64,000 nt of DNA from positions 806,001 through 870,000 of the forward strand of contig QPGO01000004.1 in NCBI GenBank assembly GCA_008632985.1, written 5' to 3'. Made by a program: the position numbers and the translations under genes. Below are positions 17,027-44,004 of the stretch, piece after piece. The first letter of the stretch is position 1, and every line of letters begins with the position of its first letter. The notes below the pieces were generated by a model. The model ran no database searches and had not been told where the DNA came from. It worked only from the letters and a program-made list of their open reading frames with translations. Source of the DNA: Psammoneis japonica (taxonomy: Eukaryota).

Positions 17027-17206
17027 AGCGATTGTACTGTAGATTGTAGGAGTAACGACGACTAACCACGACGATAATGTGAGAAAATGAGGTCGAAAAG
17101 GTGCGTCTTCGTCAAAATCAGCGAATGAAAATTGAAAATCGCGAGCAAAATCACGCTACCGGGAATGAAAAGCACGACTGTAATCTTCCCTCGTTGTTGC
17201 GAGCTA

Positions 17207-17524
17207 CTACGAATTGCTGAACAATTGCGCGATACACGTGCCGGAACGGTGATTGTTGCTTCGGGCACGAAATTCGAGCTTCGCGCACGTAGAGACCGTA
17301 GAATATGTACCAGCATTCGAGAATGTCCGATTTGTGTAGATCACGTAGCACCGTACCACAGAGGTCATTTCATGAAATTCCCGCGACGACTCATACGACT
17401 CCAATGGTATTTTCAATACCATATGCTATGTAGAATGGACATCTCCCGAACGGTGATTGTTGCTTCGGGCAACGATATTCGAGCTTCGGGCACGTGTATC
17501 GCGCAATTGTTTTGCAATTCGTAG
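17207..17524. mobile_element. MITE with ~36-40 bp terminal inverted repeats and TA target-site duplication (Tc1/mariner type)
   Basis: CTACGAATTGCtgAACAATTGCGCGATACACGTGCC at 17207 versus its reverse complement at 17489-17524 (2 mismatches); TA at 17205-17206 and 17525-17526; internal repeat GAACGGTGATTGTTGCTTCGGGCA occurs twice. Confidence 0.85.
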
Positions 17525-17526
17525 TA

Positions 17527-19390: not shown

Positions 19391-19392
19391 TC

Positions 19393-19722
19393 GCAGCTAT
19401 TCAGGGCCGGGTTGACTTGCTTGTACTATCTCTGGTTCCCCCGTTGTCTGCTAACTACAGAACAGGTTCAAGGTCTCGCTACTAGTTTGATCCCGCCCAG
19501 CATTCCGCGCGGCTGGGTGGCTTGTGGGGTGGTGGTAAATCTCTAGAGGCTTACCGATTTCTGCATTCCACTCTCTGAAACTTTCTCCGCTTGTAGAAAG
19601 AGTGTGCCTATCGGCATTGACAGAGGTGTTCTTGTCTGCTGAGACTTACTGTCGCCGCCGCCACCAACCCGATCTTTTTTGAGGCGGTACCCTATCAACA
19701 CTAACGCATCTATGACGAAGTG
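19393..19722 (+). repeat. Diverged direct repeat, copy B (matches 15067-15461)
   Basis: Same colinear blocks as copy A, with several small deletions. Confidence 0.9.
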
Positions 19723-22700: not shown

Positions 22701-22797
22701 GTTTCTTTAGAATCGCCTTCAGCTTCTCGTAGTTTATATAGAACTCTGCCCATTCGGCAACCTTATTATCTTCCAATTTTAGTCCAAACTCGACCAT
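19756..22797 (-). CDS. SPX-EXS phosphate exporter (XPR1/PHO1/SYG1 family), multi-exon
   Basis: MVEFG..L...W.EFYINYEKLK (SPX), INYTGFVKIIKKHDK, RVNYIYLF, GDVLTS, RFNQCLRRY, NAFKY, WDVFMDW, RRTVWAFFRLENEH. Confidence 0.95.
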
Positions 22798-24456
22798 TTA
22801 GCCATTCGTATGAAGATGTAAAGTCCAAGATACCTTGAATGCGAATTGTGAAGGGGAATAGTAACACGAAACGACGACGACGACGACGGCCCGCCCTTGA
22901 ATGAATTTTCGTGTCGGGTCTGTGGTCGGTGCGGTGGTCGGTGACCGGTGAACATGAAGGTTCCGGCAGTGGCGTAGCTTGTGGTATATTTTCTACGACT
23001 TGCGAAGATTCATTCATTCGTGGACGGTGACGTGTCGGCGCGACCAATGTCTGAACAATGAACATGCCCATTCTCACGAAAAACAGCGAGTGCACTGTGT
23101 GCTCGAAGAACGAGTGTAAACGAAAGTAGAATAAAGTACGAAAAGTAAAAATTATAAAAGATTAGATTTTACTCAATCATTTTGGGTTTATCCAAACGAG
23201 TTCTCAATGGCCTAAAGCTTCTGCACTGCTTCCACAGACCAAAAGGCCTTTCGGAGAATGCGGTCGCAACAACAGATTGTCCGGATCAGATTGCCATTGA
23301 CACGCAAGATGTCAACATCGTCAAGCAATCGCACTTGCAATTTTCAACATCCAATCAATTCTGTGTGACTGATCTGTCCTTTGCATGAACTCATGATTGG
23401 CGTGCGATTGAAATGTGGTGATGTCAAAATGCACACGCACACATGTGCAAAATGTGCACGAGACAACGCATGTTGCCCTCGCCTCCCCAATTGCACTTTG
23501 GAGTCATTCGTCAAACGGTGTGATGCAACAAATGTTGACAGTGTCAACAATGTCACCACATTTGATCTTCACTGTGCCACCAGTGTGTGCCGTTGTGTTG
23601 TTGCTTGCGGCCCAACACACAGGGCTCCCGCTCTGATTTTTTAGAGAGCCTTTTTCAAGCAGAATCGTTTCTCTTGCTCTGAACATGCATGGAGCACGTC
23701 GAGCATTCTCTCGAGCATTGTTTTCATTCATGATTTCTTGTTTTCATTTCTGGACAAACCTCCAATCAGCAATGTGTTGGACGTTAAAAATCGTGTCTCT
23801 GTTGAAGACCAGCTGTCCTGGTGTGGCTTGCATGGTGGCATGGCACGTGGAGCGTGCAGCAAAGGCCGCTGATGATGATGGCACACCAGAAAACAGATTG
23901 TTCTGCATCTGGAGGTGCACTTTGCAGGTCAAATGCATGCAGCATGTTGCCCAGGGCTTGATGCACAGCACTTGTTTGTGGATTTTCTTGTGTGGTGGCT
24001 GTGGGCTTGCATTGTGTGTCGCAGTCCTTTTCAACCATGTTTCTGAATTGGTGTCCAATGAACACACTTTCATGGTCATGTGCAGTTGACAATGGCCAAG
24101 GACATCTGCTTGGCCATGTCTGCTCCAACAATCCAGCAACAGTTGTGGATTCCTCATTTGGAATCTCCGCCACAACTTCAAACCATCTTGTTGCTGGATT
24201 GACCATTGTCAAACATTTCAGGGCTGGGGAATTCTTCTTTCCCTTGTGACGCATCTTGCATGGTCCAATGAGATCCACACACAGCTGTTCCCATGGCACT
24301 GCTTCAGTGCAATTGGGGGGGCAAATGCCCATGTTTCTTCTGTTTCTTTTTGAATTTTTGGCATGTCCCGCATTTTGACACACGCATTTTCGCATGTCTT
24401 TGCACAAGGCAGACTGCCACAAGTGTTGCGAGATTGTTTCTTTGGCTCTGTTTGTG

Positions 24457-24574
24457 TGTCTGGGTGCAGAAGGTGTGCATGGCATCAATCTGTTGCTGCT
24501 TTTTGCAATGTCTTGTCTGGGTGCAGAAGGTGTGCATGGCATCAATCTGTGTTGCTGCCTTTTGCAATGTCTTG
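24457..24574 (+). repeat. ~57-bp tandem duplication inside gypsy integrase
   Basis: TGTCTGGGTGCAGAAGGTGTGCATGGCATCAATCTGT at 24457 and 24514. Confidence 0.9.
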
Positions 24575-26596
24575 GGTGCAACAATTTTTTCCTTGTGACA
24601 CATGAGCAACCAGTCTCACACTCGCCTCCACAAAAAGTCTTCACAAAACATGTCATGTCCAACAATTTGGAGAGAATGTCTTCACCCCACTTTTGTTCAG
24701 CATCCAGAATTTTGTGTGTCAAGGGAAAGACATTGTCTCAGGATTTGGGTGAAACTTTCTCAGCCAGATCTTCAATGCTGAGGTTTCCCATGGGTTCAAT
24801 TTTTTCACAGCAAGTCAGCTGATCATGTCTGTGACAATGTTTGCCTTGCTCTCAAGGCAAACCAATTCAGGGCTGCATTCTTCTGTTGTCATTTGCCAAT
24901 GCATGACTCTGTCCATTGTGAAGTTCTTGTGGGTGAGATTCTCACGATCCGTGTGCACATCAATCTGTTGGCCAAACAGCATGTTCCAGAATTCCTTGAG
25001 TGTCTCTCCACTGTGGGTGGAAGTTCTGTTTCTGTTGGAGTGCAGTGTGTCTGTGCTCCATTTAACTTGTGACTGCAGAAGGCAACAGGTTGGTTGTTCT
25101 ACACAATGACTGGCCCCAATTGAGAATTGCTTGCGCAGGCATGTGTCTCAAAGAGTTTGTTGAAATTTGGATGTGAAAATGATGTGCATTTTGAAACAAT
25201 TGTTTGCTTCACATTTTTGAAGGTGTTTTGTTCAATTTCAGTCCATTGCCACTTCACCTTGGATGAGGTGAGTTTGGCCAAAGGAGCAAGAACATGAGAT
25301 TGTTGAGGCCACACATCTCAACAGCAGTCAATCGTGCCAACAAAACATTGCAATTCCTTGCAAGTTTTGGGAGTTGCAATCAACTGAATCACCTCCACTT
25401 TCTTTGGCATTGGGCTGATGCCATTGTGGGTGACATGAAAGCATGGACAGTCTGCTTTGGGTTTTGCAAAGAAGGACTTTTTGGCATTGATCTTCAACCC
25501 AGCTTGTTCAAGGCACATGAGTGCTGTTTCAAGCTTTTTGAGATGGTCTTGAAAATCACCTTTTGTGAGACACAGTGTGTCATCAGTGCAATCATTGAGT
25601 TCTGATGGACTCCAGACTTGCCGTGAGTTCACTCATGTGCTCTTAAAAAATGTCTGGAGCTCCACAGATTTCCATGGGCAGTCTGCAGCACTCACATTTG
25701 CCTCAAGGCATGAGGACAGTGCACAAGTGACATGGCAGCATCCCATGTAAAAATCAAGTGAAGCAGCACACACAAAACCTTCAAGTTTTTGCAGCATGTC
25801 TTGAATGTCAGGCAGAGAGAATGGAGCACACATTGACCTCTCATTCAGTTCACGGAAGTTGGACAGAAACCAAACTTGACCTTTTTTTGTTGAACAAAGG
25901 TTGGAGCTGCCCATTTGGAACAATTTGTTTTTCTCAAGACTTTCAACTTGCACAGTCTTTCAACTTCCTTTCAAGCAGTTGCCTCCAAGCCTTGTGGTGC
26001 AGAAAATGGCTTCGCGTGATGCGGACTCACGCCCAATTTCAACTTGAGATCCACAGGCTTCCTGGTCCATTTGCCTGGAAAACCATCAAAAAGGTTTTCA
26101 AATCTTTTTAGGGGGGAAGTTCAACTGCTTCTGCTCCTCTGGAGTTAGATGAGTTGCTGCTGCAGCCACATTGTCAAGGCCAGCTGTGTGATGATCTGAG
26201 TCAAGAATCCAGCTGACCCTGTCATTGAGGCTGATCATGGTGTGAGATTCCCAATGTGATTGGCAATCAGCTTGAACACCACATCAGCATCAAAAAGTGC
26301 ATCAACATTCTTCACAGGTGCAGCTGCTTTCTCCCATTTGATTTCTTTGTTTGCAAAGTCCAATGTGGTCCCAAGACTGGACATTGAGTTGCAACCTGTG
26401 ATCACATCACAATGACTCAAAGAAGAAGGGGCATTGTCAACACATGCCGTTGTTTCTGTCATCTTGTGTTTGTCAAATTCAGGTGAAGAGAACTGCGCTG
26501 CACAGCAACTGTCAGCCATGAAGAGCCCACCCTTGGTTTCCCAAGTTTTGGTGGCAGATTTCTTCATTCTCAGTTTCATTTTGAATTTGCACAAAA

Positions 26597-26614
26597 TTGT
26601 GGTTGACAACATTC
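26597..26614 (+). repeat. Left target-site duplication of the LINE (TTGTGGTTGACAACATTC)
   Basis: Identical 18-mer at 34440-34457. Confidence 0.93.
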
Positions 26615-29600
26615 ACTTTTCTACACAAGCACACATTGGTCGTTTCCACGTAGAATTCTGCGAGCTTTTTGCACCAAGCAGCCGTCACCATGACGACCCC
26701 TCCTCCACGCAGGCTGGCCCTGCCAGTGTTCCTCCCCCGGATCCTCCCCCCATTGTGGATTACACCCCATCGACTCCAACAAGAACTGGGTCCAAAAAGT
26801 CCAACGCAATTGGCCCTGACGAAATCACGATCCATTTTGAGTTGACGTCGGCAGAGGACAATGCCTCTGCGGTGCCAGCTGTGGGTCACACCACTGTCCT
26901 CCATGCCCCACAACAAAAAGCATCTCAAGATCCTTTGACCCACAAAATCTCCATCATGTCGAATCGAGGAATTGATGTTCCCGACATCAACGTCGTCGAA
27001 TGGAATTCTGGACTAACTCATTCGCAACACTTCGTGGTTCACCGCGTCGGAGGCACCCGCCGCCGCCCTCCTGCTCACATCATCGCCCACCGCATCCGTG
27101 CTGCTTTGACTCTTGCCGAAATCAGGAATGTTCCCTTTGTTCACAAAGTTCTCAAAGATGACGGCATTTACATGCGACGTCATGAATGGGACGAAACTGC
27201 CGTCGATTTATCTCGTGTTGCCCTTGTTCTCGATTTCGCGCCAAAGCATTACCCTGCGGACATTGTTCAGAAACGACTCATGTCAATTCTGCCACCCCGC
27301 AGTCGCTCCAAGGTTCCCTTCTGGTTGATTGTTCAATCGGCAACATCCCCACTCGACAAGGATGTCAAAGCAACTTTCTACACAATCGAGACTCCTCGAG
27401 ACCGAGCCAAAGATGTGATTGCTGCTTTGATGGAAGTGCTGAAGGATCATCCTTTAGCGGTTGTCTTCACTCGCTGGCGGTGCACCCAACCAGAACAATT
27501 CGACAAAGCAGTTCGGAAGCAACGTAAAACCGCAGCCATGCTCCATGTGATTCCATTGTTGCGTTACACTGATGGAGTGCATTTTTACATGTCTGACAAA
27601 ATTGCAACAATCCCCGGAGCAGTGGACGTCGTTCCAGCAAAGAAGAAAACCTTGATTCCCCATCACAACATTCTCGTGGACAAACTGTGCTTTCACAAAG
27701 CCAAAGAACAAATCACTGAAAACTTGTCGGAATGGACAAACAATCGTTCATTCACCAACCACATCCTGTGATTCCGGGTCTCAATGACGACATCTCCGGC
27801 ACAGCTCAGTCCATTGCCTCGGCGACCATCCAAAGCTGGAAGTCGTCAGACATTTCTGATGTCTCGCCTTCTGACTCCCATGCCACCAAACCTGCTCCAC
27901 AGCCATCCCCCCCACCGGTTCCACGAAACGTCGGGATTCACGGAGGTTTTCAGACCTTTGCCCAAGCACTGGAAAGTTCCACAAGCGCGGCAGTGCCAAG
28001 AGCAACCCCAACTTCGGAGTTGACATCTCAGACTGACGACATCGCAGAACTCAAACAAATGGTCTTACAGCACCATCAGGAACAGGATCGTCGGTTAGAG
28101 CAGCCAGAACAGCAACATCAGGCATCTCTTGAGCAACTTGCATTAAAGTTTCAATCTCTGATTCAAGAAACAATTTCAACCATGTCTCAAGGTGCAGCAT
28201 CTCCTCAGAGGAAGAAACCTGCACTTTCCGCTCCGGCAGGGTCTTCATCTCATCATCCTCCCAACGACACCACTGTGGACGACGCCGAACAAGATGACTC
28301 AGTTTTTTCCTGGGGCAGGACCAGTCGTCTCACCTGCCTGGCTCCCATGACGCACACGCCAGTCGCACTTCTCAGTCTTTCTTCGAGAAAGCATGGCATC
28401 ACACCCGGGGGTGACACCCCTTCGGTGGCACTTAATCCCGCTGCTCAGCAGTGGTCCCAGATGTTGTCAGGCAGAAGTTTTGCACCTCTCTCCAGCACTG
28501 TTGATCACACTGCTTTGCAACAGAATGACCCGATCGGAGATCAGTTAGGCCCTAAATCTCCTGAACACACACGATTGCACGTGTTCAACGCAAACGGATG
28601 CGCTCATGACCTCCAAGGTGGCGACTTCAATGCACATTCTCAAGTCGCTGTGGAAGTGCAGGCAGATGTCGTTGGAACATCCGAAACTTGCTCAGACACT
28701 GCGCAGTTCAAAGTCCGACAGAGTTGCTCCAATGCAGTTTGCCAGTCTCTTCATCACGGCCGTTTGACGTTGTCATCCTCCAAGACCACCTTTTCTGCTC
28801 CTTACAAACCAGGGGGCACCGCCTCATTTTCATGTGATTCCCTGTCTTCACGTTGCCGTGCCCAATGTGAGGATCCCCTTGGAAGATGGTCCATTCAAAT
28901 TTTCGATGGACGCCACGGATGGCAAGTGATGTTTGTGTCTTGTTGTCGAGTTTGCTCTGGCTCTTCGGTTGCAGGAAAAACAACAGCCTGTGCTCAACAG
29001 GTGGCACTGCTGCGACAACAAGGGCGAGCGAACCTAGACCCAAGACGATCCTTTTGTGCTGACCTGACTCGGATCTTAGAGAGGTTTCTCGATGACACCG
29101 ACCGAGAGGTTGTTCTGTTCGGAGACTTCAATGCAGACTTCCGAACTGATGACGACACCCTCGCTTCCATGGCGCAACGGTTCAACATGTCTGATGCAAT
29201 GTATCACCATCAAGAAGACCTTGAATTTTCCACTTGCATGAGAGGATCTTGTCGGTTAGACTTCGTTTTGGCAACCCCAGGGGCTTTGGCAGCCTCTAGA
29301 AAGTGTGGACACGAATCTTTCGGATGTCGCACATCTTCGGATCACCGAGCGCATTTTGTCGATTTTGACACAGTGGCATTGTTTGGCAACCCTGCCGTCG
29401 ACCCACCACGTGCCGAACACCGTGACCTGCAAGCAAATGCTCCCAAACACATCACCACATGCCTGGAGACAATGGCTTCACTGTTGTGCAGCCGAAACGT
29501 CACGGCGCGAACCGAAGCCTTGATCCAGTCCTCGACTCCAGACCACAGACTCGCAGAGAGACTTGATCGGGACATCCTGCAGTTTTCCATGTCGTCTGCG

Positions 29601-32600
29601 AAGCATTGCCGATGACATGAAGAACCAGCATGGTCTGTTAAACTGGCTGGTCTCCGTCGACAGATTTTCGCATTGTCCAGGATGATGTCGATGTTTCGTG
29701 CCAAGGTCGACATGGTGCCTTCGATTCTGCGTGCTAAGTTTGACCTCAAAGATTCCTTTGTTCTCCCAATTGCCCCACAGGAATGTGCGATTGCTCTGCG
29801 AAAAGCTCAGTCAGAGTGCCGTCAGGCAGCACGCGAATGTCAGCAACATCGAGACGAAGAACAAGATGCCCGCATCGCTGAACTCGAACTGGATGGCACC
29901 AAACAATCGAAGGCCACTGCACGAATTTTACGGAATCAACATTGTGCAGAAGAAACCAAGAGGGCATTCAGGAAGATCAATGCGTGCAAGAGAGCGGAAG
30001 GAGCCAGCGTCCGAACCATTCAGATTCCTGAAGATCCCAGAGATGATCCCAAAACATGCGAGAATTGGATGACGATCGACGCTCCAGACGATGTGGAATC
30101 AGCTCTCCAACACAGAAACCAACGGCACTTCGGCCAGGCACAAGGCACTCCCCCTGCAGTTCCACCTCTGTCAGTCGACTTGGGCTGTGAAGGTGACACA
30201 GCAATGGCGGATCTAATCCTAGACGGAGAATGCGAAACCAGTCACCTGAACCGTGCTGCTTCGTTGTTGATGCAACACCTTCGACGAAGGACTCCATCAG
30301 CAGTTTCAAATTCCCTCACCCCAGAGGCACTTCGCTCAAAGACAAAACTGTGGTCAGAGTCAACGTCTGCCTCCTTGAAGTCAGGGCCACATTTGGGACA
30401 CTGGAAAGCTGTGTGTGCTCCACATTCCCACTCCAATGATTGTGATGAAGACGGCATCCCTTCAGATCGGAAAGAGTTGTCAGACTCAGTTCAGCAGTCA
30501 CCAGTGTCTGTGCGACTCAATCTGATCAACTGTGCACTAAAGTGGGGATGCTCACACGAACGGTGGAAGGACATGGTCAATGTCATGATCTTCAAAGAAC
30601 CAGGCAATGACAAAATACACCGACTGCGAGTGATTCACATTTACGAGGCGGACTTTCAACTCATTGCAAGTGTGAAGTGGCGTGAGTTAGCCCAGCACAT
30701 GGAACATCATCGAATGCACAATCCCGGCATTTGCAGATGTCGCTCCTTCCTCTCTGCTCAAACTCCTGTGTTTCTCGAAAACATGATGCTGGAGACATCG
30801 CGCGCCTCACGGAAAACCTCACTCACAAGTGACGACGACTGCACCTCTTGCCACAACAGGAACATTCCAGCGACAGCAGGTCTCTGCGCAAAGAGCGATG
30901 GGATGCATGAGAAAGTTGTGAAAGTGAACGTGGCAACTCTGCACCACGCACGGCATTGGTTACGCACTTTGTTGGGACTCGCCCGAAAAAGTTGTTCTCA
31001 TTCCCCCGAGCACCCGTTGCATGGAACAGGACAAGGCAGCGGCAACTCTCCCTGGTGCTGGAACACTCTGTGCAGCAGACTGTTTGACATCTTTGACGCA
31101 GAAGCCATCGGCTCATTTTTCGAAACTCCGGATGGACAGTTTTACATCCGCGCACACAACAGAGGTTATGTTGACGATGCGTCTAAGCAGGTGAACGACT
31201 TTAGAGCAAGCCCTCAGCCCTCAGCACTCGAGCCATCTCAGGCACTTCAATCAGACAACCAGTTGTGGTGTGACTTGCTGGACGCAGCTGGACACGAACT
31301 AGAATTACCGAAGTGTTCTTTCCACGCCATCGAATGGGATTTTACCGAGTGCGGTGAACCGTGTGTTCGACCTTGTCACGACGACATCGAGGTGGAGATT
31401 TTTTCCGCCGACCGTTCCACTTCACGTTGCAGCAAGCAATTGTCAGCTTACACTCCCCATAAAACTCTGGGACATTGCATGGCTCCCATCGGTGCGCAGA
31501 AGACTCAGCTGCAGAAATTACAACACAAGAGCGACACTGTTTCGTCATTTCTTCGGTCATGTCCTTTGGATCGTACAGAAACCTGGCGATGTTGCCATGC
31601 CTGTTGCCTCTCATCGATGACATGTGTTCTGGCTAACTCTAATTTTCTCCCGAAAGAATTGCAACAGGCACAACAGAAGGCTGTGCGAACGATTTTTGCA
31701 AAATGCGGCTACAACAGAAACACGAAACGTCTTGTTCTTTACGGTCCCCAGGCTTTAGGAGGAGGAGGGTTTCGATCGCTCGACACAGAACAAGGAGTTG
31801 CCCAATTGCTGCAACTGCTGAAGCACTCAAGAGGAGTTGCCCATCTTCAACTTGGGGAAGATCAACCATGCAAGTTACTTCACATTGCCGTTGCATGGAT
31901 TCAGTTAAACTTGGGGACAGGCGACAGTTTTTTGTGGGACGTGGAGACAGAGTTGCCACACATGGAATCGCGATGGTTCGTGTTGGTCCGAGCATTTCTG
32001 CAACGGATCAACGGCCGAGTGTTCCTAACTCACAATGGAACACTTCCGCTACAATGAGACAACGACCAATGTCTGATGGACATCGTTTTGAGATCCAAGA
32101 CCTTCTCTGCACGAGAGATTCGGTGGATTGGTCATTGCCGATTGTTCCTTCGGGTCTTGTCTGTCTCGGATGTCACTCTTTCAGATGGTGTTGCAATTGA
32201 CGGTTCAAAAGTGAAAGGGGAACCCTCTCTGTGCAGCAGCCCAAGCACCCTTGACAACGTCGAACAATGCAAACCGTGCAAGCGAGCTTGGACAGCGTGG
32301 GGGAAATTCTGTGCAAGTTTGTGTGGTCCAAAATCACTTCAACTGAAGGAACCTCTCGGCGATTGGTCATTTCCTCCGTCAAAAATGAGGATGCAATCTA
32401 CCGCTTGCTGCTCCCCATCTGAAGAGCACTTGTGCGTTTGTTCATTGGAAGGTCATGACATTTTCCAGGTGAACGGAACTACAACTGATTCAATTGTCGA
32501 GATCGAGACCGTTCCAACCCCCTCCGAAGAGTCTCACCCAGCAGAGGTTTCTGCACTCGAGGACGGACAATGGCGATTTGAAATTCCGCGTACATCACTC

Positions 32601-34439
32601 ACACCTCCATCAACCCCAGATGCACCGGACTCCTTTTTCGAGAGCCTGCAACGATTGGAACTTTGGGAGTCTACATTGTTTGATGCTTTGGAACTGCATG
32701 TGTCCTCTCAAGCATTGGTTCAACACTTTCTTTCGTCAACTCTCACTGCAGGCAGTGACGGCTCTGTACGTGAGGGAGCCACGTTCGGCTGGACGATTAC
32801 CTTGAACGGCACTCCACCAGTCGATTGTGCTGGCCCTGTGTTCGGGAAGAAACCTTCCTCGTATCGCGCGGAAGCCTGCGGCATTCTTTCAATCGCTCGG
32901 TTCATTTGCCGATTGTGTGAACATTGTCGGATTTCTGCTCCATTGGACGCGGTGATTCACTGTGACAACAAAGCTTTGGTCGAATGCCTGTCTCGGTTGA
33001 CATCTGCTCCACCTGTGATCGACCCAGGAGACGAAGCACACACCATGCATGATTTTCACATTCGGCATCACGGCGCCAATGCCATGTCCTCAGACTGGGA
33101 TGTCTTGAACAAAATTCTTTGTGCCCAGCGAACGTTGAAGCTGCTCTCGGAGTCGACGGACATGACTCTTCCCACAGTTTCTTGGGTGAAAGGACATCAA
33201 GACAGGCACACTCCAGTTCACACCTTGCCCTTAAATGCAAGAGTCAACATCCGGGCGGACAGATTGGCAGGATCATGTCAAGGCCACTGCCTGTGCGACA
33301 CCGATCAGGTCAAGCATCTTCCTCATTGCCATTCTTGTTTCAAGACAGAGGGCGGTGCGGTGACTTCCAATTGCAAGAAACAAATCAGATGCGCTGCCAC
33401 AGCTCCCCCACTGCCAGAGTGCATCGTCGAACGTAGCCAATGGACTGATGCGGTGATCGAGCAAGTTGACTGGAATGCACACGCAATCCCAGTGAAACGC
33501 CATTCAAAGCAGCACGTGAACACGGTCAAATTGGTTCACGATTTGCCACCCACGAATGAAATCGTCCACAGACATGACCCAGTGCGTCCCCACCAGTGCA
33601 TTGCGTGTGATCATCCAATGGAAGACAGGGATCACATTCTACGATGCCCCAACAACGAGCAGTGGAGGAGGAAGTTTTTACAAGGATTGCGCCGCTGTTG
33701 TGACAAGGTGGACACCATGCCTGTCCTACGTGACTTTCTTCTGGATGTGTCACAGGCTTGGTTTAATGAGGAAATCACTTGTCTTGCGGATGTGGATTAC
33801 AGACTCAAAGAGTTGTGGAAAGCCCAGACTGACATTGGCTGGAGACAGATTTTTAATGGTCGATGTTCGTTTGTGTGGAACCTGCTGCAATCCGGCCACC
33901 TTCGTGATTCAGGTGTCTTGAGGCAATGTCAAGAAGAGAACAAGCAGCCACCGGATTGGACCGTCCAGGTCGGATCACACATGTGGAGAAGTTGGTGGGA
34001 ACTGTGGGAGGAACATGACAAGCTCGTCCACGGGCACGACGTGGAATCTCGTAAGTCTTCCCAGCGGCGAAGGGTGGAGGCCGAATTGACTGCGATTTGC
34101 AACAAACGTCAGGAGCATTTGGCGAAAGATGGAGGCGTGCTGCTTGACTCGGTCGAGGAACACCGTACATTTTCGACGACGAGGATTCAAAATTGGATTT
34201 CAATGGTGCGACCACGCCTCCAAGACAGCTTGAAAGAAGCCAAACGCCCAGCCAAACGTGGCACTCGCACCATTTGTAGCTACTTCCGTCGGGCGCCCCC
34301 CACTGGGGGCACCGGGTCAGGCCAATTGCACACAATTTCTGCCGCATCCTTTTAGGGTGTGCTGGAAGTGTGGGTCAGCCGGCGCCGGTGTTGCTGGGCA
34401 AAGGTGCAACAGCACTTAAAAATTAGAGTTTGGTTTTTT
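26615..34439 (+). mobile_element. Near full-length non-LTR retrotransposon, Ambal-like (ORF1; APE endonuclease-RT-RNase H)
   Basis: APE motifs FNANG, FGDFNA, RLDFV, SDHRA; RT motifs KIHRLRVIHIYEAD, GTGQGSGNSP, GYVDD, LELPKC; RNase H motifs SDGS, SSYRAE, HCDN, WVKGHQD, ADRLA; ORFs at 27732, 29673 and 32076 share one frame; 18-bp TSD. Confidence 0.93.
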
Positions 34440-34457
34440 TTGTGGTTGACAACATTC
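34440..34457 (+). repeat. Right target-site duplication of the LINE
   Basis: Identical to 26597-26614. Confidence 0.93.
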
Positions 34458-35790
34458 TGCCATCAAGGAGAATGTGCAGAGGCTCATTCTTTGCTTTGCC
34501 CAGAGAGGCATTCACACAAGCAATGACTGACAGACTGGCATGAATTGCTTTGACCCTTTTTCTGGCTTTCTGACATCCAGTGGCATGCAAGACTCCTCAA
34601 GCGGCACCAGTCATTCTTCAGCATTGCTGCACATCATTTTTCAAACCAACAATTCTCTTTTTGCTGAGAGAATCAGAATCATGTTCCTTGCTCTTGCGCT
34701 TTGTGTTGTTGTTCAAAGAACTTGTCTTGAGTGCTTTTTGAACTGCCTGGAGAACCATGGCACTCTCTGCTCTTCTTTGTGAGTGGCATTTTTGTTGTCG
34801 CGATGTGACCACATGTGACTGCCATTTGAATGACGCTGTTTTGGATCACGTTTGTGATTTCCGTGACATTCTTTTGCCAGCCATTTAATGACCCAGCACT
34901 TGCCCACATTGTGAGTGGGTTTTTAGCAGCAGTTGCGCCACTTGTCAGACTCAGACAATTGCTTGGCACCAGATTGGTGACCATTTTTAGAACCATGATT
35001 GGACCCATCTTTGTGGCTTTTGATCCAGGTTTGTTGCTGGCATCAGCCTTGACATGAACAGCATCAAAGATTTCCTCAGCAACCTCCAGACACTCAAAAA
35101 ACTTGACCAACTCATTGAGGCATGCTTCAACATTTCAAAACCTTGAGGGGTTGACTGGCGCTGCCATTTGTGAGGTGCAAGGTTGCAGAGAACATCCTTG
35201 AGCTCATCCTCCTCGATTTTCTGACCTTCATCAAAGGGAGGACAGAGCTTGAGGTCTTTGTTGACTTCTTGGACCCAAGCGGCAATTTCCCTGATCTTCA
35301 AGCTCTGGTTTCTTGAGATTGTGCTGCAAATTGTGCTTCTGAATCTGAAGTGCATTCTTTGAGAAAACATGTCTTGCAAGGCACTGTTGACATTTTTCAA
35401 AAACTCCCTTGCTCTCTTCATCTTCAACATTCATGTCGCCATTCTCAAATGCATGCAGAGCATCTCCCTGCAGCAACGTGCACATGAGACAGAACTTGTC
35501 CACTTGCTTCTTGATGTTCTGACCCACCAAGAGTTGATCATGATTCTTTGACAATTCAATGTGCTTGTTGGGAATGCCTTGCTTCTTGCAATGCTTGACA
35601 TTGATGGTGCAAGTGTTGCTGTTCTTCTTCAATGGGTCTTGACAAATTGCTGTGGCATTGCAAGAATTGCAAAGCACTTGCAAAGTGAGTGTGTTGCTTC
35701 AGCAGAGCGGAGACAGCATGGCTGTGTTGAGGCTTGGTGTGATTGTTGTTCATTGTGGGTGCTTGTTTCTCTCAGTGCCTGCATGATTTA
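34458..35790 (-). mobile_element. Decayed gag and protease N-half of the same gypsy element
   Basis: LLVGQNI...LLQGDALHAFE, KIREIAAWVQEVN..L.LCPPF, EDELKDVL...PHKWQRQ..QGF, VKFFECLE; joins the 26614 fragment across the TSD. Confidence 0.8.
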
Positions 35791-36299
35791 AACCAGATTT
35801 CTCAATGTCAAATGTCCCAAATGTTGTGGTGGATGGTTCAAGACAAGGTGGGACAAATGGTGATGGACTTGGGAATGTGTGTTTCATTGCAATTGGTGGA
35901 ACAAAGATGACAAAACAAATTGGGCCTGGCAACCCTGGCTGCTGTACATTGGCCATCCCAGCATGAGCCAGATGAGGAGGCAGGAATGTGAGCCATGCCA
36001 ACCACAGCTGCAATTGCTGCACCATTGCCAAAGCCGGTGACATCCACTCCATCAAACAAGGCCCCGGTTTGGTGGCTCAGACAGGTCAAGAAGGCATCAA
36101 GCCTTTGTTCAGCAAAGAGTGGACAAGATTGTGGCACATGGTGCCAGGCAAAGAAAGAAAATGTTGACATGATGGGCATGTCCCTCCCAGTGGCTGTCAG
36201 AGCCAGCAGCAGTTTAATGTCATCCACATGCTCCCACAATCCAGAAGCAATCATCAGCAACTTTTCTTGGGTTGTAAAAGTCTTTTCCTGGATGAGCAT

Positions 36300-39200
36300 C
36301 ATGGACCAAGTGGGTCAATGGCTGGTGCTTCATCATCACATGAGTTGCCCATGCCTTTGAAGCTTGTGATGAGAGCATCCCACAAAACTCCAGCAATGAT
36401 CTGTGCACAAACCACATGAGGGGCAGCACACAACAGGCCTTGGCATGGTCCAGCAGTCCAGCACAGCAGACGAATTGAGCCCCTGCAATCATTGTGGTCA
36501 AGCCAAATGTTGCGCTGTTGAGGCACACAGAGCTGTTGCTCTGGAGACCAAGTGACCAACCAAGAAGTTGTGAAGGGAAACGTGGAACTCCAGCTCCAAA
36601 AACTGCAAGGCAGATTCCCAAGGGGGCAGCCAGTGACTGCAGTTGGCAATGAAAAACATCAGGGAGATGCAAAGGAGTTTCTGGGTTGAGCTTCGATTGG
36701 TGAGGAGAAAAATGTGGTTGGCTGTTGGAAGCAGAGAAAATCTCAATTGGGAGCAAATTTTCTGAAGGATCTGGTGCTGCTGTCTCTGTCTGCTGGTGGT
36801 GTCAGCTGAAGCAAAGTTGCTGCATTGTCTTGAATCAAAATGTGTCAAAAAGCCAAATGGGGGGCAGATGCAGAGGCAAGCCTGTGCTCTTCAGCAGGAA
36901 AAAATGCACTGCTGCCTGCACACACACCTTGGAAGGAGGCATCAACCAGTCTTCCACACAGGTGCACTTGACCTGGGCAGAGTTCGGGTTGCACAGCAAA
37001 TGAGTCAATGGGCTCTGAGCTTGGCAAGTGGACTTTTCTTGTTTGACATGGTCAAGGGTGCCAACACTGCTCAGAAAGGTGGGAACACTGCAAATTGTTG
37101 ATTTGCAAACATTCAGCCTGTTGACGAGAGTTGTGTCAGACACTGTGAGAGCCACCTTGTGGGGATGGAGGTGACAGCAACCAATCCAATGAGTTTCTGC
37201 AGAACAATGAAAATGTGGCAGACTCCAAAGCCCCGTGTCCATCAAGTGCTGGTTGCTCCTGTCCCATCAGAGAGGCAGCACATGACAATTGGTTGACACC
37301 ATTTTTCCACCTGTTTGATTCAAGAAGGAGCAAACAGAGGCAAACTGCAAGGACTCACCATGGGGGCAAGGGGTGCTCACATCAGACAGAAAGCTGATGC
37401 CACAGTGCACTGCTGCAGCTGAGTCCATGCAATTGCAATGTGCACCACTGTGGCACATGGCCAAGCATGACACAGCAATGTTGAATTTGTGCCACTCCTT
37501 GTTCAACATCCAATGAATGAAAACCACCTCCACCAAGGGACTGAGGCCTGGACAAGACAAGGTCATGTTTGGCATGTCTGTTGCACCCATGCTTGGCAAA
37601 AATGACTCTCATGTTTGAATTCAATGGGGTTGCCGTGAAATGGGAGTTGGCCAAAACAAAAACAACTGCAGGCAATCAACATGCACAGCAGCAGTGCCAA
37701 GATTCTGCACAGTCCAAGGGACAGGGTCAGGATCAGAGAAAAAGGACTTTCCAATCACTCTTGGTTTTCAACACTTGGAGCTGCTTTTTCAATGTGCCAG
37801 TGAGAGGCATGTGGTGACCAAGAGTGTTGTGAGGTGTGCACACCAGCAGTTGGGCACTGTGCCAGGATGCAGAATGGTCTGCAGAGAAAATTTCAACATC
37901 CTGAACTGGGCACCATTGTGTGGGTGCAAACTCAGCTTGCTGCATTCAGAAAATTTCCATTCAATTGCATGGAAAGAGCACTTGGGCAACTCCAATTTGT
38001 GGCCACTCAAGAAGAGCAAATCACACGACCAGAGCTGGTCATCATGCTGTGGCCCAGGTGCCAACTCTTCAGCAGGAGGTTGAGGGGATGCTCAGAAGTC
38101 ATTCACTTGTTTGAATGTGTTGTCAACACACCCATGGGTGCAAATGTGAATTTGATGGAATCCATCAGCACACAAATCAAAGAAAGCACCTCATGCCTTG
38201 GAGTTGAAAATGTCAAAAAAGAGACTGTGCAAGTCACTCCAACAGAATGGAGAGTTTCTGGCACCCTGCCCCACACCACAAACTGGCAACTTAAAGCTGT
38301 GAGAGTGTGAGTCAGCAGACAAGCCCAGAAGGGTGAGCAACCAGTGCCAGGCCAGATGGACAGTGTCAATCACCACTGCCACTGTGCAGGGATCCATGCC
38401 AAGGCTTTCAAAAAGGGTGGCCGTTGGAGGAGCAGGCAGGTTGCATCCACAACAGGAGGCACAGTCATCATTGCTTGCAATCAATGCATTCCTGGAAGGG
38501 TGGGAGATTTCCAGCATTGAGACTTCCAAAAATGCAGGCATCTGGGCACAAAGGAGTGCCCGAGGAGTGCCATGCATGCCTGGATTGAAGAGATGCTGTT
38601 GCTCCACATGTTGAGCAAGGGCTCTCCACTTGACAGGGGCTGTCAACTGGAGGTTGGCCTCCAAGATGTGGTTGACATGTGATTGGTGTGTCTTGTTGTT
38701 CCCTGGCTCCTCAAAAATCATGACATTGACAAGTCATGCCACCTGTCACAGGAGCATCCCCACTTGAGAGCACAACTCTCAAGAGGTTCAACCAGACAGC
38801 CTGCAAGGTCTCTTGCACTTGGTCTCCTTGCCAACAGGGTGACCATGCTCATCCACAACCAAGGAATGGAGATGTTTTGAGTGCATCACTTTCCAGGGTG
38901 TCCCAAGTGTAGACAGGACACTCCAAGGAAGCAGAAGTTGGCTCAGGCCAAGGCTTGAATTTTCCACGGAGATCAGCAGTGGTGAGAAAGTTTGGTGCAG
39001 ACACAGGAGTGCTGCAACAGAGGTGCTGGACAAGCAATGCCATGGCTTCAGTGAGACTGAGGGTTTCACATTCACTGCCCAGTGTCAAATTGGCCATGAT
39101 TGTGTTGCCTCCTGCACAGCCCAGGTCAATCAACAGTGGAGGACAATTGGTTGGAAGGGTGCCATGTGCTTGGCCAAGGTGCCTCTGATTCCAGGCCTTC

Positions 39201-41290
39201 AATGAAGCTGCTGCATCTTCTGGAGCATCTGTTGCCACCCAATTGTCACAAGTCTCAGGATCTGCAGAGAGATCTTCTGGGACTTGAGTCTTGCTGACAT
39301 TGGACATTGGAGCCATCCTTGTCATCTGCAGAGGCATCAAGTTTTCAAAAAACATCTCTTTGGCACAGTGCAATCTTGGCCTGTTTGATGGAAGTGGGAA
39401 AGCCTTCCAAGTCTGATTCTGCAATCCATGCATCTCCTTCTTGTTCATGGTGGCTCAGGCTCTCATGAGCTGCTTCTTGTTTGCACTCAGCTTGGGCTTT
39501 GCAGAGGACATTCTGACATTGTTCCTTTTGAGTTGAGAGCAGAAGAAAGGAGTCATTGGCTTGTGCCACTCCCTTGGGGCAGACTCAACAAAGTTGACCC
39601 TGTTCTTGAACATGAGAGAAAAGAAGGTGAGACAATGTAAAAACTCCTGTCCATCAAAAGGTCCAAGACCACTCAGGTCATGGTGCTGTTGGCAATGTTT
39701 TGCAAAGCAGAAGTGCAAAACTGGGTCATGTCACAGTCCAATTGTTCAGATGACAGAGGGTCTGGTTCATCACCTGACACACAGAAGAAGAACAGTGCCA
39801 TGTGCCAACACATTTTGACTCTCCAGCACACAGGACCCGTGGTCTTTAAATGCACAGCAATGTGCTTTGGAGATTTTGCTTGAAGAGACCTGTGTGCTGA
39901 TCAAGAAATGTTCACCACAAGATTGCCAAAAAGCAATTCAGTGTCAACGTCAACAAAGCAAGCTCAACAATCCAAAGCCAGCAAGACACCCCTCACAACC
40001 ACTGCACAGTTCACCACAGCATTGTTTCACTGAATCCAAAGCTCCTGGAGCAGCTGAGATGCAATTGAGATGTTGAGATCTGCACAAATGGGTGGGGAAG
40101 TCCACATCCTGCATTTTGCTGAACATGATGCTGGACAAATCAAACCAGGTTGCCACTCATGTGATTGGGTCTGTGCCTGGTGTCATGGTGGAAGTTGGCA
40201 TCAGAATTTTCTCATGGAGCATCACCTCATGATTTGGCTCTTATCTAGAATTGATTAAAGGACATGAGCAAGATGGGCACAAAAGAACAACCAAGGTTCT
40301 GGTGTGTGCCTGACAACAAGACACAAATGTCACTTGTCTCAGTCATTTGCCATTGGACATTTGAGTCAACCAGCACCCAAGAGGAGGGTCAGTCTTCTTG
40401 GAGTGGCTGGTGCTGCAAAGCCATTGAGTTGCAAGAAACAACAGTTGTGCTGCCAGGCTTGCAAGGCATGGCAAATGTCACTGAGAATGCCAACAGGGCC
40501 GCATGGAGGAAAACACAAATCACCCTGCAGGGTTGGGCTGTCTGCAGTTGCATTGTGTCCAAGCAGGTTTGGGAAATGCCAACAAGGTCAGCCTGAACCT
40601 CATTTGTGACTTAAAGAGCATGTGTTGAAGTCACCGCCAAGGGAAGGTCAAAGCAGTCAATCATTTGGGAAGGCAGAGAGCAATGATGTCATCCATCCAG
40701 GATGTGGCTCCATTGCTGAACCATGTTTTTGCAATGAATTTGAGGACTGCTCATGTGCATGGTTGGGCCATGCTCCCTCAAAGGGAGACTGAATGTCAGA
40801 CACAACATCTGAGTCATTTGGTGCAGGGAAGGGAAATGACTTGTCATGCCCAACTTAAAATCTGACTCATTTCATGTGATGTCCAGCATGGAGGCATCAT
40901 CAGGGGGGTCAGAGGAGGAGCTGGTGGGGGTGGAAATGGACTGCTTCTTCTGTTGGGGAGAAGTGCAAGATTCAAGGTCAGGCTGGGGAAGATGCTCTTG
41001 AAAAATTGAGATCTAAAGCTGCTGCACCAGGTGATTCATTTGACTGTGATGGTCTTTTTGAAGTTGTTCCACAAATTGCTGATGTTGTTCCTCAAGTTCA
41101 TCTGTCCGACTCCTCTCTTGGTTTTGTTTCACATGAAGAATTTCTTGCTTCAACTCCTCTGCTTCAGATGAATTGGGGGCAATGTCCGAGGTTGCAGCAG
41201 TGGGAGGGACTGATCCAGGAGACAACTTCAATGCTTGGGCAAAGCTAGAAAACTGGTTAACACCGACATTGGTGGTGGGGACTCTGGAGG
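36300..41290 (-). mobile_element. Second, heavily decayed and truncated Ambal-like LINE (different subfamily)
   Basis: Peptide fragments colinear with copy 1: FAQAL..ELKQ, PETCDNWVATDAPED..NQRHLGQAHGT, MIFEEPGNNK, GVGQGARNSP, GHKLELPKCSFHAIEW, GGGGFHSLDVEQG, ATFG; ends within RNase H. Confidence 0.88.
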
Positions 41291-42027
41291 CACCGGACTC
41301 GGATCTGATGTGGGCGGCGGAAAGGCATTGGTCGCTTGAGAAATTTCTGATGTGCACGTTTTCGCTTGGATCAGATGATTGGGCCACGATGGCGCTCATT
41401 TCTCTCGCCCTCCACAATGTGCCACGCCCACAGAACACCTGGAACAGCCGATGGGTTGGTCCCACTAGAGATTGGGCTTCCTATGATGTTTCTCGGTAAC
41501 AACGCCATTGCACATTTTCTCCATGCGGCACGCACCTTGGCTCGGCTGCGCTGCACCGCTGTGTTGAAGTCAAAGGCGCCTCGGTGCTTTATGGTGTTGT
41601 CGAGGGCAGCATCTAAGGATGACCGTCTCATGCAAAAAGTCGCAGCATCAATCTTACCTCGTAAAAACTGATGAAGACGAGCCGGTGCTGACGATCTTAG
41701 CTGTGATTCGGATGGTGTGCTACTCTGTGCCACTAAAGTAAAGTAGCAAATCTCGGAGCGCTTTGCTGCCCCCGGGTATTCGGAGCCCTATATGAGGTAC
41801 CCACTCTTTACCCATACACGCTGTTTCTAGCTTAACGATTAGTAGTTTTGGAACATGCAATGCAGTTTCCTTCCTGTTCCAGTTGCAACAATCATCAGCC
41901 ATACATAAAGACAATACATGCATACCAGAAAATCGATGAAAAACGAAGTCTAGTAATGCAACAAGCAATGAAAAGTGCGAACGGCAGCTACGAATGAACA
42001 GCGGTGCATTGGTCCAGTAGTCTACCA

Positions 42028-43632
42028 TCATGCTTGAAATTCCGATCCAAAACCCATAGATAGCGTGGACCCAAAGGCATAGCTCACTTTGTTCTGGAAG
42101 GGAGCGCACTTGCGAGCGACACGAGATGAGACGGAAGCAGGGTTGGTTTTTTTCATCAAAACATTTTCCAATGCAACTGCAACGGCAGCCATGTCAGCCT
42201 CCTTGAAGCCTCGGCGTGTCAGAACCTGAGTTCCTAGACGCAGACCAGTCGCCTCCACTGTGTCATGAGGTAGCTCTTGAGGATTCACCGAGACTCCGGC
42301 GGCATCAAGTAGTTTCGTAGCCTGAGCGCCCGACGGACCCACCATAACATTTTCAAGATCCAAGATGAGCTCGTGGCTGTTGGAATAGCCCAGATCTGAA
42401 CACAGGAGCTTGAACTTGCGCGAGATCAGTTCCTTTGCGAGAGCCTTCGTATTGGACACGACCTGTCTGGCGTAGTCTTCGCCGAATGCCTTCATCTCAA
42501 TCATGGTCATGGCGAGGGCGGCTGTCTCATGGAAGTGGGTGTTGGACGTGAGAAGAGGCATGACAGCTTCCCGGATCTTGGGAGTCAAGGAAGGATCGTT
42601 GTAGAGGATGAGGCCGTGGTCCGACGAATGAAGTGACTTGCCCGTGGACGACGTGACAATGTCGGCGTACTGCATCATATCGCACTGGAAAGCTCCTCTA
42701 GCAATGAGGCCTGCAACATGAGACATATCGTAAAGGATCTTGCATCCATAATCGTCACAAATCTTACGAATTGCCGGAAGGTCATGCTCAAAAAGCATCT
42801 CACTCCAGCCGAGAATGAGGAGGGTGGGCTCGTGGGTTTCCATCGCCAGAGGAAGGGCCTCGATGTCAACGTTGTAACCGTCTGTTATCCACGGAGTCTG
42901 GACAACGGTTGCACCAAACAAATGAGTGAGAGGCCCACCAATGTTATGCGAGTAGTGGCCACCGTGCTTGCTAGGCCAATATCACGGCAAGAGTTGAACC
43001 TCGCAATACTTGGCGCCATATACTTCACACACCAACTCTCGTGTCTTGATCTCGATCTCGTCAATCTCCTTGCAACCACCGTAGAAGCGCGAGCCCGGGA
43101 GACCGATGCAATAACTGTTCATAAGCGAACTGCCCATGATTTTGCGAACTTCCTCCGAGCAAAAGGAGTTGCTTGCCACGAGGTCAAACTTGTTCATGTT
43201 GGTTTTTTCGTGATGGGCAGCAATTGCTTCATGAAGGGACTCGACTTCCAACTCATGCTGAGAGAAGAGGCAGTCCTCAATGGTGATGGAAGAGTCCGAG
43301 TGAGATGATACCGTCGTTGCGCTGGTCACTAAATCAGAGCGAAGCTTGATCGAACTTTCGCAAGGATGACGACGAGGAGGGGAGAGTTTGCTTTCGGAAA
43401 TGCCCATGTTGAAGGAATATACGGCTGCTGAGAAACAGTCTTCAAAGGCGTCCTTGATGATGGTTTTTGATTTTGTGAGGGCAACCTTCGATGGGCGCGA
43501 CGAGAAGCGAGAAGGTCGCGTTGTGTATTTTTCACGTGTTCCACTCAAAACTGCGACCTTCATTCCACTTTCAGTTCGTGACCGACTGCGACTCGGGACA
43601 AAAGACAAAAACAGAGGGAGGGGCCATACCAT
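42028..43632 (-). pseudogene. Atypical SHMT/threonine transaldolase-like PLP enzyme with an in-frame stop and apparent deletion
   Basis: LVASN, NSYCIGLPGSRFYGGC, HGGHYSH, YDMSHVAGLI, ADIVTSSTGKS, GLRLGTQVLTRRG; TGA at 42984-42982 separates two same-frame ORFs. Confidence 0.75.
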
Positions 43633-44004
43633 CTGGACACTCTAGCTAGAGAGGGCCCTACTGCACGGTACAGTATGACATGTACGTAGACTACATGATG
43701 TACTTCTTCCCAATACAGTATGTCCTCAGTCCCGATCGCTGAGTCCCGAGTGTCCGGATCATGTGTTCGTGACTCGAAATAAGAGGGAATACACGAGAAT
43801 CATCATTGCATTTCAGTAACCTTGTGCGGTGATGCTTGTTTTTGTATCACATCTGGATCACTGGTATACTGGTATATTGTAATTGAGCCTTCGCAATATC
43901 ATTTTTGTGAGTGACGCTACTCTCTAGCCTTGTCATGCAGTAGCTGACTCAGTGAAGCAGCAAAGGCCACGACAGTTCAAACCGTTTTCTGTCTCCAGCT
44001 TGGA

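Follow-up and report, generated by a model that had tools for sequence, protein, structure and literature searches.

Why does the dinucleotide TA nearly vanish from a long block of DNA in the diatom Psammoneis japonica? The block lies in a 64,000-bp stretch of contig QPGO01000004.1 (GenBank assembly GCA_008632985.1, positions 806,001 to 870,000 of the forward strand), hereafter the window, and consists of nested retroelements with normal diatom genes on either side. A first-pass annotation, made from the sequence letters, had proposed that these elements were hypermutated from TpA to TpG or CpA by a targeted mutator. As assessed by counting dinucleotides, the block at 23230-41300 contains 103 TA, corresponding to an observed/expected ratio (o/e) of 0.09, against ~709 expected at the rate of the flanks (1731 TA in 44105 bp), which bears out the near absence of TA. 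CA (1917, o/e 1.70) and TG (1792, o/e 1.59) are 1.6-1.7-fold enriched, in agreement with the annotation, and CG is found 502 times (o/e 0.46). In the flanks, i.e. the rest of the window, the o/e values are 0.59 for TA, 0.99 for CG, 1.15 for CA, and 1.20 for TG. The annotated count of zero TA and nine CG at 36277-38291 is correct (CG o/e 0.07, CA 1.88, TG 1.92), but the TA expected there at the flank rate amount to ~79, rather than the ~100 put forward. As detailed below, the pattern is a transposable element (TE)-confined hypermutation of TpA to TpG/CpA, superimposed on CpG decay, and the core of the annotation holds.

The depletion is confined to mobile DNA and stops at element borders. On the left, dense TA ends at 23213 and is sparse beyond, at most ~35 bp from the start of a high-copy repeat (23179, a loose end of the other copies). 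On the right, TA comes back between 41466 and 41721, and the change at 41466 lies close to the extrapolated end (~41480) of the outermost element. There are 36 TA-free gaps of at least 200 bp in the window, 30 of which are in the block and three in a separate patch at 17990-19398; the longest of the remaining three is 247 bp. The flanking genes, which encode an SPX-EXS phosphate-transporter-like protein and a serine hydroxymethyltransferase (SHMT), have a normal TA o/e of 0.5-0.65. Between the borders lie, from left to right, the repeat (23180-23870), a retroelement remnant (23871-26616, minus strand), a long interspersed nuclear element that we name LINE A (26617-34440, plus strand), further retroelement debris (34441-36375, minus strand), and LINE B (36376-~41480, minus strand), an older single-copy relative of LINE A. 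TA is scarce in all of them, whereas CG loss is patchy. In the older parts, CG o/e is 0.07-0.16 (23871-26499 and 34422-41270): the remnant has a TA o/e of 0.03 and a CG o/e of 0.15, the debris (34422-36375) 0.06 and 0.16, and LINE B, which holds a 2017-bp TA-free run, 0.04 and 0.07. In contrast, CG o/e is 0.81 in LINE A (26500-34421; TA 0.16), and 0.73 in the repeat (23214-23870; TA 0.04), where CpG is largely kept. The CpG loss described in the annotation is therefore strong in the older parts, but it is not uniform.

The ancestors of LINE A and LINE B contained TA. We compared them with LINE relatives from metagenomes, using the best 80 of 226 confirmed related loci. All 80 show a TA o/e between 0.48 and 0.85 (mean 0.68), against 0.16 in LINE A and 0.04 in the older parts. 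On this baseline, LINE A has 75 TA where 357 are expected, and the older parts have 28 where 457 are expected. The proteins tell the same story. In an 813-aa reverse transcriptase (RT) segment of LINE A, Tyr makes up 0.74% and Cys 4.31% of the residues, whereas the averages over 120 homologues are 3.67% for Tyr (none below 2.31%) and 1.73% for Cys (none above 3.03%). When a column was counted as conserved Tyr if 15 or more homologues were aligned there and at least 60% of them had Tyr, LINE A was found to keep Tyr at four of 27 columns (Cys 12, His 7, Phe 3, Trp 1), and LINE B at none of 13 (His 4, Cys 4, Leu 2, and one each of stop, Phe, and Asp). Other conserved columns are kept in 358 of 467 cases in LINE A and 144 of 225 in LINE B (Fisher p 9e-11 and 3e-6, respectively). 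In a separate MAFFT alignment with 60 homologues, Tyr is kept at three of 18 columns. Every replacing Cys is encoded by TGY, and every His by CAY. All seven peptides quoted in the annotation are present, at 25579-25593 (minus strand), 30522-30557, 30846-30860, 31014-31043, 31461-31487, 31587-31631, and 32865-32882, and the RT motif reported as SCHNR indeed reads TCT TGC CAC AAC AGG at 30846-30860. The GC content of LINE A (51.4%, vs 47.6% in the relatives) has risen by an amount that matches the loss of ~282 TA in 7.9 kb. The concern that the relatives or the family consensus might already lack TA and encode Cys/His is answered by these comparisons, since the relatives keep both TA and Tyr.

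At the protein level, the signature also exists in at least one other public data set. P0310, a 359-aa metagenome protein in ENA (contig of 7686 bp), is a LINE RT fragment with 0.56% Tyr, 5.0% Cys, and 5.3% His, which retains Tyr at only one of 11 conserved columns (His 3, Cys 3, Phe 3, Leu 1). An exhaustive protein search had added 140 new representatives, and no other of these shows the signature.

The loss is specific to TpA, and AA is not depleted. Compared with the 80 relatives, LINE A has z-scores of -6.9 for TA, +4.1 for CA, +2.5 for TG, +1.2 for AA, and -2.9 for AT, the slight drop in AT being what a preference for ATA/TAT sites would produce (see below). The o/e of AA is 1.09 in LINE A and 1.19 in the older parts, against 1.02+/-0.06 in the relatives. 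The possibility that substitutions are not enriched at TpA relative to other A:T sites, raised in the annotation as a test of its own proposal, is therefore not borne out. Both strands are used about equally, as assessed by the ratio of Tyr->Cys to Tyr->His changes, which is 16:11 in LINE A and LINE B, and 19:14 when P0310 is included (binomial p 0.49). The base composition of LINE A relative to its relatives (A 0.251 vs 0.309, T 0.236 vs 0.214) hints at more loss of A from the sense strand; it was not relied on, because lineage composition differs.

Not all TpA sites are erased equally. We measured survival by context as the number of observed TA tetranucleotides divided by the expectation from tetranucleotide frequencies in the relatives. 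ATAT has no survivors of 34.5 expected in LINE A and of 44.1 expected in the older parts, and the same is true for ATAG/CTAT (0 of 42.1 and 0 of 53.9 expected, respectively). ATAC/GTAT survival is 0.05 in LINE A and 0 of 73.9 expected in the older parts, and for ATAA/TTAT the values are 0.06 and 0.017. Survival in LINE A and the older parts, respectively, then rises through GTAC (0.17 and 0.032), CTAC/GTAG (0.25 and 0.03), and CTAG (0.30 and 0.117); for the remaining contexts, it is 0.50 and 0.58 (TTAA), 0.52 and 0.056 (GTAA/TTAC), and 0.67 and 0.20 (CTAA/TTAG). In total, the ATA/TAT contexts are represented by six sites in LINE A against 182 expected, and by one in the older parts against 232 expected, or seven against 414 for both together. 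This heterogeneity is highly significant (chi-square p 7e-14 for LINE A and 4e-21 for the older parts), and one parameter per neighbor, summed over both strands, roughly fits it. The order of erasure is thus ATA/TAT first, followed by TAC/GTA and TAG/CTA, with TTAA largely spared. Tyr codons preceded by T became Cys nine times and His once, whereas the others gave seven Cys and ten His (p 0.018). Although the numbers are small, these outcomes fit a mutated A whose 3' neighbor matters (T>C>G>>A). The excess of xTG/TGy trinucleotides, considered as another neighbor test, was dropped because it is confounded by ancestral composition, and the outcomes of Tyr codons were used instead. The neighbor rule could fingerprint the enzyme.

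Next, we asked whether sequencing reads support these changes and how other copies of the elements have fared. Read support consists of contigs of one public run from one sample, and copy number was estimated from summed depth. The single-copy flanks and all of LINE B have a summed depth of 62.6, i.e. one copy. The body of LINE A is at 211-633 (~3-10 copies) and its 3' end at 2808 (~45 copies). The remnant at 23871-26616 is multi-copy (480-2088), with 1388-2088 (~22-33 copies) at 25169-26502, and 23168-23834 reaches 7728 (~120 copies). A 26-kb contig with a depth of 62.6 spans 35511-42500 (6990 bp) with a single differing letter. Its agreement with the window excludes a consensus error, without being independent support; the contigs reproduce the sequence, so that lack of read support, another of the annotation's own tests, does not materialize.

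Copies of one family have mutated independently. The other copies differ from the window at 322 places, of which 294 are transitions (A>G 66, T>C 86, C>T 59, G>A 83); the remaining 28 are transversions. We inspected the context of 40 of these places, which represent 24 events, and 13 of the 24 are adjacent TG<->CA swaps, as produced when an ancestral TA (or CG) is resolved independently in each of two copies. Because LINE A has lost ~282 TA vs ~60 CpG, most of its swaps should stem from TA. The single differences within this sample are mostly TA<->TG/CA or CG<->TG/CA. At 27689, 29729, and 28366, TG or CA in the window faces TA in another copy; the reverse, TA in the window and a change in another copy, is seen at 23156 and 26761, and four single differences oppose TG/CA to CG. 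The 90-95% likeness to the window displayed by 874 of 1701 aligned contigs is roughly what is expected if TA and CG sites are saturated independently in each copy.

TA depletion is deeper in older elements, as illustrated by the older single-copy LINE B (TA o/e 0.04) compared with the younger multi-copy LINE A (0.16). The decay of CpG to TpG/CpA is a separate, slower second layer, which is far more advanced in the older elements. It resembles the known outcome of 5-methylcytosine deamination in methylated transposons in that the low CG o/e of the older parts (0.07-0.16) is accompanied by a gain of TG/CA. Furthermore, LINE B retains only five of 16 conserved Arg (Gln 3, His 2, Cys 2), whereas LINE A retains 31 of 38, one being now a stop, and both in-frame stops in the 2212 codons of LINE A ORF2 (open reading frame 2, 27720-34355), at 29613 and 32055, are TGA. 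CpG decay cannot, on the other hand, remove TpA, and TpA loss is present where CG o/e is still 0.73-0.81. TA loss precedes or outruns CpG loss. The annotation's suggestion of recruitment by methylation is not supported, since LINE A and the 650-bp repeat have lost ~80-95% of their TA and kept most of their CpG.

The annotation had stated that no such system was described, which is outdated. A preprint by Mettrop et al. (bioRxiv 10.64898/2026.01.13.699255), whose main text is the basis for all that we say about this species, reports TpA-specific hypermutation of integrated viral/TE-derived DNA in the chlorarachniophyte Bigelowiella natans. In mutation-accumulation lines, 231 of 302 nuclear single-nucleotide mutations were in two integrated viral regions, 230 of these 231 were either A->G or T->C, and each of these 230 was on TpA, at an elevated de novo rate in resident DNA of ~1e-7 to 1e-6 per site per generation (10.64898/2026.01.13.699255). 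The B. natans genome has 124 clusters showing TpA depletion with CpA+TpG enrichment, and 324 TpA-poor coding sequences enriched for RT, endonuclease-RT, and DDE domains; an ADAT2-like protein was proposed as the candidate enzyme (10.64898/2026.01.13.699255).

Several features are shared with the diatom block. Only TpA is hit, yielding TpG or CpA depending on the strand; the affected DNA is foreign or mobile and has host genes of normal composition beside it; clusters of 1-kb windows combine TpA loss with a gain of CpA+TpG; and the TpA-poor coding sequences include those for RT and endonuclease-RT. When the cluster criterion given there is applied to the P. japonica window, it selects the windows at 35001-41000 (TA o/e 0.00-0.08, TG and CA 1.71-2.01), as well as those at 24001-27000, whereas several LINE A windows are selected by TA but not by CA+TG (1.3-1.45). 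There are also differences. The host is a diatom (Stramenopiles) rather than a chlorarachniophyte (Rhizaria), and the targets are LINEs and repeats rather than inserts of nucleocytoplasmic large DNA viruses (NCLDV) or virophages. The diatom elements are near saturation (TA o/e 0.04-0.16), whereas the NCLDV insert has a Rho of 0.45, and their TpA loss co-occurs with strong CpG decay. The neighbor rule is seen in the diatom and is absent from the main text of the preprint. Finally, the rate was measured in B. natans, whereas the diatom signature is known from sequence alone. Our literature searches found no TpA hypermutation in diatoms, with most subscription journals outside their coverage.

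Comparison with better known systems is also informative. Repeat-induced point mutation (RIP), found in ascomycete fungi, similarly consists of dinucleotide-aimed transitions confined to repeated/mobile DNA, which inactivate copies independently and leave a diagnostic dinucleotide skew. However, RIP converts CpA/TpG to TpA (C->T), which lowers GC and creates stops, whereas the diatom change from TpA to TpG/CpA (A:T->G:C) raises GC and creates none. A RIP signature is ruled out by a TA o/e of 0.04-0.16, a CA/TG o/e of 1.4-1.9, and a 2212-codon frame with two stops. In animals, APOBEC3, which acts on cDNA, and ADAR, which acts on double-stranded RNA, also produce clustered transitions with a neighbor preference that cripple retroelement copies. 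Both are strand-specific per molecule, giving G->A or A->G on one strand, whereas both strands are affected in the diatom, and one-strand editing of this type is not what we found (Tyr->Cys 19 vs Tyr->His 14, p 0.49). In addition, the diatom losses reach saturation and are greater in older elements, an indication that resident DNA is what is changed.

Taken together, these findings make it likely that this nest of retrotransposons underwent transition hypermutation aimed at TpA, turning TA into TG or CA. The changes would have been made on chromosomal DNA after insertion, since strand symmetry, saturation, the age gradient, and the B. natans precedent all point to action on resident DNA. The process would be the same TE- and foreign-DNA-directed one as in the B. 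natans mutation-accumulation lines. Its likeliest chemistry would be that an enzyme deaminates adenine in 5'-T-A-(T>C>G>>A)-3' and so turns it into hypoxanthine, with hypoxanthine being read as G at the next replication, which would make it an A:T-directed analogue of fungal RIP. A change of TA to TG/CA would leave long open frames encoding dead proteins in which Tyr has become Cys or His. Indeed, since TA->TG/CA cannot create a stop codon, the ORF2 frame of LINE A stays open.

Several points weigh against this interpretation. The contigs come from one sample, possibly the source of the window's own assembly, so that they offer no independent support and cannot reveal rare variants, and only 40 of the 322 differing places were seen in context. 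A TG<->CA swap may also derive from an ancestral CpG, which makes single sites ambiguous, and the argument rests on totals. The neighbor rule has exceptions: of the Tyr codons with a G before them, one became Cys and five became His, and the copy differences at 23156 (TAA->TGA) and 26761 (TTA->TCA) are in the contexts that appear to be resistant. None of the 80 environmental relatives is depleted, which means that diatom LINEs do not generally undergo the process; of the two patterns used to search for these relatives, one contained Tyr and so works against recovering mutated copies. All affected elements in which a domain can be recognized are retroelements, which leaves room for editing during retrotransposition, and either the A or the paired T could be the chemical target as far as the sequence can tell.

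These last two points correspond to alternatives that we consider unlikely, although they deserve to be set out. Insertions might arrive already mutated if, during retrotransposition, an ADAR/ADAT-like deaminase edited UA in the RNA and TA in first-strand cDNA. Such a scenario would account for all recognizable targets being retroelements and for copies that differ independently, and it agrees with the preference of ADARs for a 5' U (cited in the main text of 10.64898/2026.01.13.699255). It is difficult to reconcile with the near equality of A->G and T->C on the sense strand (19:14), since RNA editing alone would yield only Tyr->Cys, and editing of minus-strand cDNA only Tyr->His. ADAR itself is metazoan. 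Moreover, near saturation (0 of ~79 TA), with a deeper loss in the older LINE B, fits accumulation in place; copies that had lost a catalytic Tyr could not have passed through repeated autonomous cycles; and the B. natans signature, according to the preprint's main text, arises de novo in resident viral DNA that is not a retroelement. A similarly low probability is assigned to the paired thymine being the target, with TET/JBP-type oxidation of T at TpA to 5-hydroxymethyluracil (5hmU) or 5-formyluracil (5fU) in silenced TE chromatin leading to mispairing with G and hence to T->C, which would show up as TA->CA or TA->TG depending on the strand. Background knowledge lends it some appeal, because 5fU does mispair with G and the 5hmU of dinoflagellate DNA is enriched at TpA. 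Sequence data cannot separate it from adenine deamination, and the context rule can just as well be written for T, as A-T-A >> G-T-A > C-T-A >> T-T-A. On the other hand, 5fU also yields transversions, which account for only 28 of the 322 copy differences.

Two further explanations are very improbable. The annotation had offered, as an alternative to adenine modification, an error-prone repair of the Pol eta type, with the WA->WG signature of somatic hypermutation, that is recruited to methylated DNA. Diatom TEs do carry CpG methylation, the older parts show CpG decay, and half of the WA hotspot consists of A->G at TA. The other half is untouched, with an AA o/e of 1.09-1.19 against 1.02 in the relatives, and TAA/TTA is the most resistant context, which disfavors this alternative; so do the loss of TA from LINE A and the 650-bp repeat despite mostly intact CpG, and the rarity of transversions (28 of 322). 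There is hardly a better case for dispensing with a mutator altogether, i.e. for a family that is intrinsically TA-poor through selection against UpA in its RNA or through source composition, or for a sequencing/base-calling artifact at modified bases. Although host genes likewise have less UpA than expected (TA o/e 0.59 in the flanks) and the reads are from a single sample, every one of the 80 related loci reaches a TA o/e of 0.48 or more and none of the 120 homologues falls below 2.31% Tyr, whereas conserved catalytic Tyr are replaced here by Cys or His. The same site is TG in one copy and CA in another, a 26-kb k-mer contig with a depth of 62.6 matches 6990 bp with one difference, and the unrelated metagenome protein P0310 carries the same signature.

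To our knowledge, every repeat- or virus-directed hypermutation system known before the 2026 preprint, such as RIP and APOBEC, acted on cytosine. The same signature at saturation on diatom retrotransposons extends TpA-directed hypermutation to a second major lineage, which ranks among the most abundant marine primary producers. What is new here is the diatom host, the LINE/repeat targets, the near-saturation, the neighbor rule, and the clear separation from CpG decay. The enzyme is constrained by the sparing of TTAA, the use of both strands, the independence from CpG decay, and the sharp element borders, and a comparison of the two lineages becomes a possible route to it. There are also practical consequences. 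Hypermutated TEs resemble intact long ORFs that are rich in Cys/His and poor in Tyr, which may mislead gene prediction, and the rise in GC together with the fall of copy similarity to 90-95% distorts estimates of TE age. We speculate, tentatively, that diatoms and chlorarachniophytes might share one inherited or horizontally spread DNA-editing defense, in which a TA(T>C>G>>A) adenine deaminase acting on chromosomal double-stranded DNA would be guided to mobile/repeated DNA and would reach saturation within the lifetime of an insertion. If so, the enzyme would be a natural TpA-specific adenine base editor, the A:T-directed counterpart of RIP, and comparing the deaminase repertoires of both lineages with those of diatoms that keep TA would name it.

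LINE A is a non-long-terminal-repeat retrotransposon of the APE type, as defined by an APE endonuclease and an RT in ORF2, a target-site duplication, a 3' tail, and 5'-truncated copies. ORF1 ends at 27771. In ORF2, the APE domain at 28653-29345 matches Exo_endo_phos (E 6.6e-8, 33 bits vs a cut-off of 24.5), and the RT region is at ~30400-31700. The ORF2 protein shares 29-41% identity with LINE ORF2 proteins from diatoms and metagenomes, and the element aligns over 28371-34061 with LINE ORF2s at 30-39% identity. Named relatives are from Fragilaria crotonensis, and homologues carry PF00078 and PF03372. The 16-bp target-site duplication, GTGGTTGACAACATTC, was read at both junctions, with its left copy at 26601-26616 and an identical right copy at 34441-34456. 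The tail (34421-34440) is a T/G-rich tract and not poly(A). In other copies, TTGGG/TTTGG-like units are followed by a run of T, and 17 contigs diverge after 34421. Depth is ~45x at the 3' end vs 3-10x in the body, in line with 5'-truncated copies.

LINE A inserted into the older remnant at 23871-26616, which has a degenerate RT box (DCTDD) at 25579-25593 on the minus strand, within an RVT_1 match (25321-25632, minus strand; E 7e-4) that is under the Pfam cut-off. Beyond LINE A, the TA- and CG-poor debris starts with the right copy of the target-site duplication. LINE B was delineated by tblastn, in which residues 70-1738 of LINE A ORF2 match 41270-36376 on the minus strand with 30-55% amino-acid identity and frameshifts; its upper end (41480) was extrapolated from ORF2 residue 1. 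The repeat at 23180-23870, which forms the left edge of the TA-free zone, is without Pfam or Rfam match. More generally, a Pfam search of the 91 stop-to-stop ORFs at 17.5-42.5 kb found only the APE domain above cut-off inside the block, the matches to RVT_1, Ank, and zf-CCCH_3 being under it, and no Rfam family was found in 17-43 kb. A repeat finder detected no long terminal repeats or long internal repeats, only a 45-nt inverted match between LINE A and LINE B.

The block is surrounded by gene-dense, intron-bearing DNA. On its left is the intron-containing SPX-EXS phosphate-transporter-like gene (19759-22797, minus strand; EXS E 3.6e-37, 5.8e-22, and 3.4e-9; SPX E 2.7e-10 and 1.9e-9; TA o/e 0.57-0.65). 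On its right is the SHMT gene (42031-43641, minus strand; SHMT E 1.3e-37; N-terminal exon E 1.3e-14), which has a normal TA content, and the best named relatives of the SHMT exon are in the diatoms Amphora coffeaeformis (73%) and Epithemia (67%). Further out are genes for a thiolase, a hybrid-cluster protein, mitochondrial carriers, an EF-G-like GTPase, and others. The second, separate TA-free patch (17990-19398, plus strand; TA o/e 0.03, CG 0.43, CA 1.68, TG 1.73) contains a degenerate ankyrin-repeat ORF at 18278-19027 (Ank_2 E 2.9e-5, under cut-off), for which no homologue at E<=1e-3 was found among 115 candidates. This patch is 4 kb from the main block, with an intact gene in between. Finally, a 42-nt inverted repeat (17205-17246 / 17485-17526) that is 93% complementary, with a 238-nt spacer, lies upstream of or overlapping a TMEM14-like exon region.

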